Positions 1-434 of a DNA stretch of 434 nucleotides are shown one piece after another. Under the pieces are notes generated by a model. It did not search any database. It worked only from the letters and a program-made list of their open reading frames with translations, and had not been told where the DNA came from. The stretch comes from a phage, in the sequence record MW984357.1; one strand, written 5' to 3'. The translations under genes and the position numbers were made by a program. The number at the start of each line of letters is the position of its first letter. Position 1 is the stretch's first letter.

Positions 1-434
1 CTCACGTGCTACAGCTTTTTCGCAAAATCTTTAGTGGTACCTTTCTATTCTCACTCTCAGAATAGTCCGATTCTTCAGTATTGGTTGGCGCGGGGTGGAG
101 GTTCGGCCGAAACTGTTGAAAGTTGTTTAGCAAAATCCCATACAGAAAATTCATTTACTAACGTCTGGAAAGACGACAAAACTTTAGATCGTTACGCTAA
201 CTATGAGGGCTGTCTGTGGAATGCTACAGGCGTTGTAGTTTGTACTGGTGACGAAACTCAGTGTTACGGTACATGGGTTCCTATTGGGCTTGCTATCCCT
301 GAAAATGAGGGTGGTGGCTCTGAGGGTGGCGGTTCTGAGGGTGGCGGTTCTGAGGGTGGCGGTACTAAACCTCCTGAGTACGGTGATACACCTATTCCGG
401 GCTATACTTATATCAACCTCTCGACGGAATACAC
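1..434 (+). CDS. gIII: Filamentous-phage gene III (minor coat protein pIII/g3p) with N-terminal displayed-peptide fusion; partial at both ends, frame 1
   Basis: Frame 1 is open across all 434 nt. Translation from position 31 gives LVVPFYSHS-QNSPILQYWLAR-GGGS-AETVESCLAKSHTENSFTNVWKDDKTLDRYANYEGCLWNATGVVVCTGDETQCYGTWVPIGLAIPENEGGGSEGGGSEGGGSEGGGTKPPEYGDTPIPGYTYIN..., which matches my memory of M13 pIII (signal peptide C-terminus, N1 domain, Gly-rich linker, start of N2). No in-frame start codon for the leader is present in the window. Positions 1-28 and 418-434 deviate from the canonical sequence. Confidence 0.9.
29..57 (+). other. C-terminal portion of pIII signal peptide (…LVVPFYSHS), ending at the leader peptidase cleavage site after HS
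   Basis: Codons tta gtg gta cct ttc tat tct cac tct at 31-57 match the M13KE leader, including the engineered gtg gta cc (KpnI) change from wild-type gtt gtt cc. Upstream of position 29 the sequence no longer matches the canonical leader (MKKLLFAIP). Confidence 0.85.
36..41. other. KpnI/Acc65I site (GGTACC), the engineered 5' cloning site of M13KE-type display vectors
   Basis: Exact GGTACC at 36-41 inside the signal-peptide coding region. Wild-type M13 has GTTGTTCC here, so the site indicates an engineered vector. Confidence 0.85.
58..93 (+). other. Randomized 12-codon library insert encoding displayed peptide QNSPILQYWLAR
   Basis: 36 nt lie exactly between the leader end (tct cac tct) and the ggt gga ggt tcg spacer. 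The codons are cag aat agt ccg att ctt cag tat tgg ttg gcg cgg, and all 12 end in G or T (NNK), as expected for a degenerate-oligonucleotide library. No in-frame amber codon. Confidence 0.9.
94..105 (+). other. GGGS flexible spacer (ggt gga ggt tcg) between displayed peptide and mature pIII
   Basis: The sequence ggtggaggttcg directly precedes gcc gaa act gtt (AETV, mature pIII N-terminus). This spacer is the standard one in Ph.D.-type vectors as I recall. Confidence 0.85.
104..109. other. EagI site (CGGCCG), the engineered 3' cloning site of the display cassette
   Basis: Exact CGGCCG at 104-109, spanning the spacer Ser codon and the Ala1/Glu2 codons of mature pIII. Confidence 0.85.
122..143 (-). 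other. Binding site of the standard -28 gIII sequencing primer (5'-GTATGGGATTTTGCTAAACAAC-3')
   Basis: The + strand gttgtttagcaaaatcccatac at 122-143 is the exact reverse complement of the primer as I recall it. Its 3' end lies 29 nt downstream of the insert end, consistent with the primer name. Confidence 0.75.
190..209 (-). other. Binding site of the standard -96 gIII sequencing primer (5'-CCCTCATAGTTAGCGTAACG-3')
   Basis: The + strand cgttacgctaactatgaggg at 190-209 is the exact reverse complement of the primer as I recall it. Its 3' end lies 97 nt downstream of the insert end, consistent with the primer name. Confidence 0.75.
307..366 (+). repeat. In-frame 15-nt tandem repeat (gag ggt ggY ggN tct; four units, the last ending act) encoding the pIII glycine-rich linker EGGGS-EGGGS-EGGGS-EGGGT between N1 and N2
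   Basis: Units at 307-321, 322-336, 337-351 and 352-366. Units 2 and 3 are identical (gagggtggcggttct), unit 1 differs at two wobble-like positions, and unit 4 ends act (Thr) instead of tct. Confidence 0.9.
367..434 (+). other. Start of pIII N2 domain (F-pilus-binding domain), truncated by the window end; the last ~17 nt deviate from canonical
   Basis: Translation KPPEYGDTPIPGYTYIN matches canonical pIII. After that the window reads ...LSTEY where I expect ...PLDGTY, consistent with one missing C in the CCC run near 417-418 plus substitutions in the last 7 nt. Confidence 0.7.

Follow-up and report, generated by a model that had tools for sequence, protein, structure and literature searches.

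The window, by which we mean the whole 434-nucleotide stretch of phage DNA analyzed here, carries part of a gene III in which 12 codons and a short spacer stand between the leader and the mature pIII protein (Table 1). Frame 1 is open over the full 434 nt and reads LVVPFYSHS-QNSPILQYWLAR-GGGS-AETVESCLAKSHTENSF...IPEN-(EGGGS)3EGGGT-KPPEYGDTPIPGYTYIN. The insert codons, CAG AAT AGT CCG ATT CTT CAG TAT TGG TTG GCG CGG, encode the peptide QNSPILQYWLAR in this frame, and the borders of the insert are exact, with TATTCTCACTCT ending at position 57 and GGTGGAGGTTCGGCCG beginning at position 94. The 36 nucleotides contain no stop codon and no Cys codon and leave the frame into pIII intact. Two minus-strand open reading frames, at 2-154 (50 aa) and 75-179 (34 aa), were rejected as genes, since they run antisense to the insert and to sequence confirmed as coding for pIII.

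Table 1. Features of the 434-nt window and the evidence for each
Feature	Position	Strand	Evidence
Garbled read start, spanning the start codon and the beginning of the pIII signal peptide	1..30	+	Alignment to L002/L003
C-terminal part of the pIII signal peptide, LVVPFYSHS	31..57	+	Identical to L002/L003; library oligonucleotide; NGS forward primer
Engineered KpnI/Acc65I site, GGTACC	36-41	+	Sequence
Randomized library insert, (NNK)12, for the displayed peptide QNSPILQYWLAR	58..93	+	12/12 third bases G/T; other clones; absence from Ff records
GGGS spacer of the library design (GGT GGA GGT TCG; GGTGGAGGTTCG)	94..105	+	Sequence; published oligonucleotides; L002/L003
EagI site, CGGCCG, across the junction to mature pIII	104-109	+	Sequence
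N1 domain of mature pIII (AETVESCLAKSHTENS...IPEN)	106..306	+	Pfam PF05357; PDB 1g3p
-28 gIII primer site	122-143	complementary	Primer sequence of the New England Biolabs (NEB) kit
-96 gIII primer site	190-209	complementary	Primer sequence from PMC5925455
Native glycine-rich linker between N1 and N2, (EGGGS)3-EGGGT	307..366	+	Translation; identical to wild-type M13 and 1g3p
Start of the pIII N2 domain (TKPPEYGDTPIPGYTYIN)	367..415	+	Translation; alignment to M13 and 1g3p
Degraded read end	416..434	+	Alignment to wild-type M13

The codon pattern of the insert is of the NNK type

The third bases of the insert codons are, in order, G, T, T, G, T, T, G, T, G, G, G and G, i.e., 12 of 12 are G or T. 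A first-pass annotation of this DNA had already noted that each of the 12 codons at positions 58-93 has G or T as its last base, and this description was correct. The chance figure of (1/2)^12 (0.00024) that it attached to the pattern was too optimistic, however: 59% of the other 132 in-frame codons of the window end in G or T, and at the window's own rate the chance of a 12/12 run is ~0.59^12, or 0.0018. In addition, frame 2 of the glycine-rich linker contains a run of 19 codons ending in G or T, which shows that runs of this kind can arise without a library. Given the 59% background and the frame 2 run, the NNK pattern by itself is suggestive, not decisive.

Both flanks of the insert match an M13KE library scaffold

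Our comparison of the scaffold is based on two contaminant contigs and on oligonucleotide sequences given in papers. Among the matches of a protein search, in addition to structures and fragments of pIII, were two contigs of 282 bp from a Salmonella enterica assembly (GCA_037480375.1), namely, JBBHBN010000064 (L002) and JBBHBN010000065 (L003). L002 encodes VVPFYSHS-SDGMGIRSTMKE-GGGSAETVES, and L003 encodes VVPFYSHS-ASASHFLPDSVR-GGGSAETVES. The DNA of both contigs is base-for-base that of the window at 31-57 and 94-205, which is the whole of the overlap. Each has its own 36-nt insert of 12/12 NNK codons at the same site as that of the window. Three independent clones thus share one scaffold and carry three unrelated, all-NNK 12-mers, which is the signature of a randomized library and not what a designed insert or a natural allele would show.

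The two contigs end inside the -96 primer site, after ...CGTTACGCTAACTATG, and continue into non-phage bases; both are annotated as "hypothetical protein, partial [Salmonella enterica]." They are evidently Ph.D.-12 amplicons that entered the Salmonella assembly by cross-contamination of a sequencing run. Two further public sequences look like vector-derived sequence in assemblies: a 191-aa protein (P0004) from a 4.6-kb Logan contig, in which part of the pIII N1 domain is fused straight to the C-terminal domain with N2 deleted, resembling an engineered or truncated gIII, and a garbled pIII N1 fragment (P0005) annotated in a 5.16-Mb contig of Klebsiella sp. LY.

The 5′ cloning scaffold in the window is complete, with the leader containing the KpnI/Acc65I site and ...TTTCTATTCTCACTCT directly before the insert. 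On the 3′ side, the GGGS spacer is joined via the EagI site to AETVES of mature pIII, with identity to L002 for 112 nt. The exact flanking sequences found were TTAGTGGTACCTTTCTATTCTCACTCT (5′) and GGTGGAGGTTCGGCCGAAACTG... (3′). The binding site of the -28 gIII sequencing primer was placed with the primer sequence of the NEB kit. A published M13KE library oligonucleotide for EagI and KpnI cloning in the NEB Ph.D. system has the design 5′-CCCGGGTACCTTTCTATTCTCACTCT...(NNK)n...GGTGGAGGTTCGGCCG (bioRxiv 10.1101/2025.05.12.648809), and the flanks in the window are those of this oligonucleotide. They also match the M13KE primers of another study (PMC5925455), including the NGS forward primer at 31-57; PMC3444042 deals mainly with T7. 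Since both flanks match the M13KE library scaffold exactly, the origin of the insert from an NNK library, as proposed in the first-pass annotation, can be regarded as settled: the scaffold is that of other Ph.D.-12 clones and of published M13KE oligonucleotides, and natural Ff phages lack the insert (see below).

M13KE also serves for the display of chosen peptides at these cloning sites, as with RVLAPALDSWGT, introduced by mutagenesis (PMC5925455). We consider it very unlikely that the 36 nt are a deliberately designed insert of this kind, since 12/12 codons ending in G or T would be rare under E. coli-preferred codon usage (~0.2%, a rough estimate based on codon usage tables), the uncommon codons CTT, TTG, CGG and AGT are present, and the peptide matches no published sequence.

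Natural Ff phages lack the insert and spacer

Downstream of the spacer, the encoded protein matched Pfam family PF05357 (Phage_Coat_A; E = 1.4e-31) and was 100% identical to residues 1-104 of PDB entry 1g3p. The match begins at the Ala right after GGGS; thus, the 12-mer and spacer lie directly N-terminal to residue 1 of mature pIII. The linker at 307-366 consists of four tandem 15-nt units.

A megablast search of the window against 50,697 phage records matched 33 Ff phages (M13, f1, fd and relatives), with identities of 96.6 to 98.8% for the best 30 of the 33, and only from window position 103 onward. In a sensitive search with window positions 31-125, the Ff match was confined to the first 26 bases (31-56). 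In a pairwise alignment with M13 (NC_003287), 48 nt are cleanly inserted after the leader codon TCC/TCT and before GCT/GCC GAA ACT. None of the 33 Ff records contained this 48-nt block of insert plus spacer.

The wild-type gene III of M13 (NC_003287), f1 and fd is 98 to 99% identical to the window at 106-415, and both encode pIII (G3P) with N1, the Gly-rich linker and N2. The wild-type genes, however, are without the 48-nt insert and spacer. In the segment that corresponds to 31-57, wild-type M13 has GTTGTTCC and TCC, and the silent changes that create the KpnI site (GTT GTT to GTG GTA) and the EagI site (GCT to GCC) are present in the window and absent from wild-type M13. Residue 11 of mature pIII is Pro in wild-type M13 and Ser in the window, owing to a C-to-T change at position 136 relative to NC_003287. 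Because the change at position 136 is common to L002, L003 and 1g3p, we assign it to the vector lineage rather than to this clone. A second difference from NC_003287, T to C at position 210, leaves the amino acid unchanged (GGT to GGC) and falls outside the reach of the comparator contigs.

A gene III that naturally contains the 36 nt, the finding that the first-pass annotation had named as a refutation, did not turn up in any of the 33 Ff records. We regard the idea that the 48-nt block is a natural variant from a filamentous phage as extremely improbable. We found nothing in its favor, the engineered KpnI and EagI sites on either side of the block are both missing from wild-type M13, and the block had no match in the viral, metagenome, genome, plasmid or E. 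coli collections. Within those collections, the exact 36-mer was absent from viral, metagenome and genome contigs, the same three yielded nothing for a general Ph.D.-12 scaffold pattern that leaves 36 N for the insert, and plasmids and complete E. coli genomes gave no megablast match to the window.

We conclude, with a probability of roughly 0.97, that the window is a single read of an M13KE-based pIII display clone of the NEB Ph.D.-12 design, with a synthetic NNK 12-mer insert.

Irregularities are confined to the ends of the read

One observation stands against reading the window as a display clone: as written, positions 1-30 contain no start codon in frame with the insert. According to L002 and L003, the M13KE sequence for this segment is TCAACGTGAAAAAATTATTATTCGCAATTCCT, relative to which the window shows mismatches and three single-base gaps; the GTG start of pIII, at 6-8, is as written out of frame with the insert. 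Because pIII would be lost if the leader were truly frameshifted, we attribute the gaps to read error, and the irregularities at 1-30 are almost certainly base-calling errors rather than a property of the clone. At the other end, in 416-434, one C is lost from a CCC run, ATCAACCCTCTC is read as ATCAACCTCTC, gaps follow, and the last ~7 bases are miscalled. The pIII frame is broken there, giving INLSTEY instead of INPLDGTYPP, from which we infer a read-end error in this segment also. The insert and its flanks sit in the clean part of the read.

The peptide has no counterpart in the literature searched

QNSPILQYWLAR and all seven of its 6-mers were absent from ~8 million full-text papers, a set that lies outside subscription journals, patents and BDB. 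Literature matches to its 5-mers, 15 papers in one search, occurred only in unrelated proteins. Together with the absence of the 36-mer from three contig collections, this agrees with the first-pass annotation, in which the peptide was not recognized as a published binder; no published binder or mimotope of this identity was encountered in the literature searched. In some isolates, HIV-1 gp41 has ILQYW (residues 5-9 of the peptide; window 70-84) in its cytoplasmic tail (...KYWWNILQYWSQEL...), a five-residue match that is consistent with chance. The per-clone probability of exactly QNSPILQYWLAR under NNK is 2.8e-16; hence, independent recurrence of the peptide is not expected.

One possible reading of the peptide, which we put forward tentatively, is that panning enriched it because it truly binds a specific target, which would make it an unpublished ligand or mimotope. 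If so, the ILQYWL core would be the binding determinant. Display clones that are sequenced individually are usually panning outputs, as far as we can judge, and the peptide bears no mark of an artifact (see below). Set against this are its absence, and that of its 6-mers, from the full texts, the lack of any target information, and the lack of sibling clones or a consensus motif. Moreover, its composition is that of random NNK output, and a single clone cannot show enrichment.

The composition of the peptide is typical of NNK output

QNSPILQYWLAR contains one Trp, one Tyr, one Arg and no Asp or Glu. Hydrophobic residues (I, L, Y, W and L) occupy five of the 12 positions, and its GRAVY value is -0.48, i.e., it is net hydrophilic. 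For random NNK 12-mers, the probability of at least two aromatic residues is 0.31, that of at least five hydrophobic residues is also 0.31, and that of no Asp or Glu is 0.46. The composition is thus typical of NNK output and provides no evidence for or against selection. Of the earlier description of the composition, the I, L, Y, W and L residues, the single Arg and the lack of acidic residues were correct; the hydrophobic character was overstated, given the GRAVY value and the NNK-typical content, and "Trp/Tyr-rich" does not suit a peptide with one residue of each, a number of aromatics that is reached or exceeded in 31% of random NNK 12-mers.

That every composition feature tested lies at NNK expectation favors a second possible reading, namely, that the clone is an unselected library member derived from quality control of a naive library, a background plaque or carry-over. 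The stray Ph.D.-12 amplicons in an unrelated bacterial assembly point the same way, since they indicate that such clones reach public data without a selection context. No direct evidence speaks against this reading, but long single-clone reads probably come more often from panning outputs.

The peptide matches no target-unrelated motif or peptide tabulated by Vodnik et al.

The first-pass annotation had hinted that the peptide resembles target-unrelated binders. We applied the motif and peptide tables of Vodnik et al. (2011; PMC6259164) to QNSPILQYWLAR by regular expression and local alignment. With or without the GGGS context, none of the 24 target-unrelated motifs in Table 1 and section 4 of that review was present in QNSPILQYWLAR. 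The absent motifs included those for plastic (WxxW, WHxW, WHW and FHxxW), streptavidin (HPQ, GD[FW]xF and PWxWL), biotin, metal, protein A and Fc, as well as K(L/V)WX(I/L/V)P, WxPPF[KR], His clusters, WT[IL]xxHR and SS[IL]. Nor was QNSPILQYWLAR similar to any of the 11 recurrent or target-unrelated peptides of Vodnik et al., which include HAIYPRH, SVSVGMKPSPRP, APWHLSSQYSRT and HGWLYPHPRYPV; the best local alignment score against the listed peptides was 2. These results do not bear out the hint. Several target-unrelated peptides in the catalogues of Vodnik et al. (2011) and SAROTUP TUPScan come from Ph.D.-12, the same type of library as that of QNSPILQYWLAR. The peptide contains aromatic residues, the general property linked to plastic binding, but not above NNK expectation, and matches no motif or sequence tabulated by Vodnik et al.

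We therefore consider it rather unlikely, and somewhat less probable than either of the preceding readings, that the clone is a target-unrelated one that binds plastic or a blocking agent via I, L, Y, W and L or that has a propagation advantage. In support of plastic binding, Tyr and Trp are adjacent in a short hydrophobic stretch, ILQYWL, and aromatic residues are known to drive binding to polystyrene, with peptides that lack the classical motifs still able to bind plastic (Vodnik et al. 2011; PMC6259164). Against it, the single Trp allows no W-x(1-3)-W, WHW or FHxxW, the other motifs are absent too, the GRAVY value is negative, two aromatics are expected in 31% of random NNK 12-mers, and there is no similarity to HAIYPRH or the other listed peptides. 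As to a propagation advantage, the known extrinsic mutation is a G-to-A change in the gene II Shine-Dalgarno sequence (PMC6259164), a locus outside the window. The weights that we give to the three readings (specific binder, target-unrelated clone and unselected member) were set by inference, and the remainder is unallocated.

Discussion

The window shares with NEB Ph.D.-12 clones (M13KE, pIII N-terminal display, (NNK)12-GGGS) an identical KpnI scaffold, the 36-nt insert length, the NNK codons, the GGGS spacer, the EagI junction and a gene III that includes Ser11; relative to the Ph.D.-12 clones L002 and L003, only the 12 random codons differ. M13KE is defined by its lacZ-alpha marker (M13mp19-derived backbone, blue plaques), which is outside the 434-nt window; the C-to-T change at 136 (Pro11Ser), shared with L002, L003 and 1g3p, supports this backbone only indirectly. 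With the rest of the vector, including lacZ-alpha, lying outside the window, the sequence does not distinguish a clone of the commercial Ph.D.-12 library from one of a custom NNK12 library in M13KE. Likewise, selection history and target cannot be told from the sequence of one clone.

In this display system, the pIII pre-protein is exported via the Sec pathway and cleaved by signal peptidase, and about five copies of pIII are present at the phage tip. In the NEB Ph.D. system, the cut falls after ...SHS, which here corresponds to base 57. The clone was most probably made by inserting a synthetic oligonucleotide, with 12 NNK codons followed by the GGGS spacer, between the engineered KpnI/Acc65I and EagI sites. 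By analogy with the established system, its pre-protein would pass through the Sec pathway and be cut after ...VPFYSHS, and Gln1 of QNSPILQYWLAR would then form a free N terminus on all of the approximately five pIII copies at the tip. On chemical grounds, such an N-terminal Gln can cyclize to pyroglutamate. The GGGS spacer would keep the peptide away from the N1 domain, and the peptide would be open to affinity selection (panning) with its coding DNA inside the same particle. On this account, the 12-mer itself is a random member of the library; it comes from no natural source, and any function it has is limited to whatever it binds by chance.

One random 12-mer is thus the sole non-templated information in the window, and the construct is a standard, commercial-type reagent. 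Even if QNSPILQYWLAR binds a target specifically, it would add a single hit to those already known from panning, of use to the holder of that target alone. The practical value of the analysis lies in recognizing windows such as this one as synthetic vector and library sequence, and their read-end errors as artifacts, rather than as biology.
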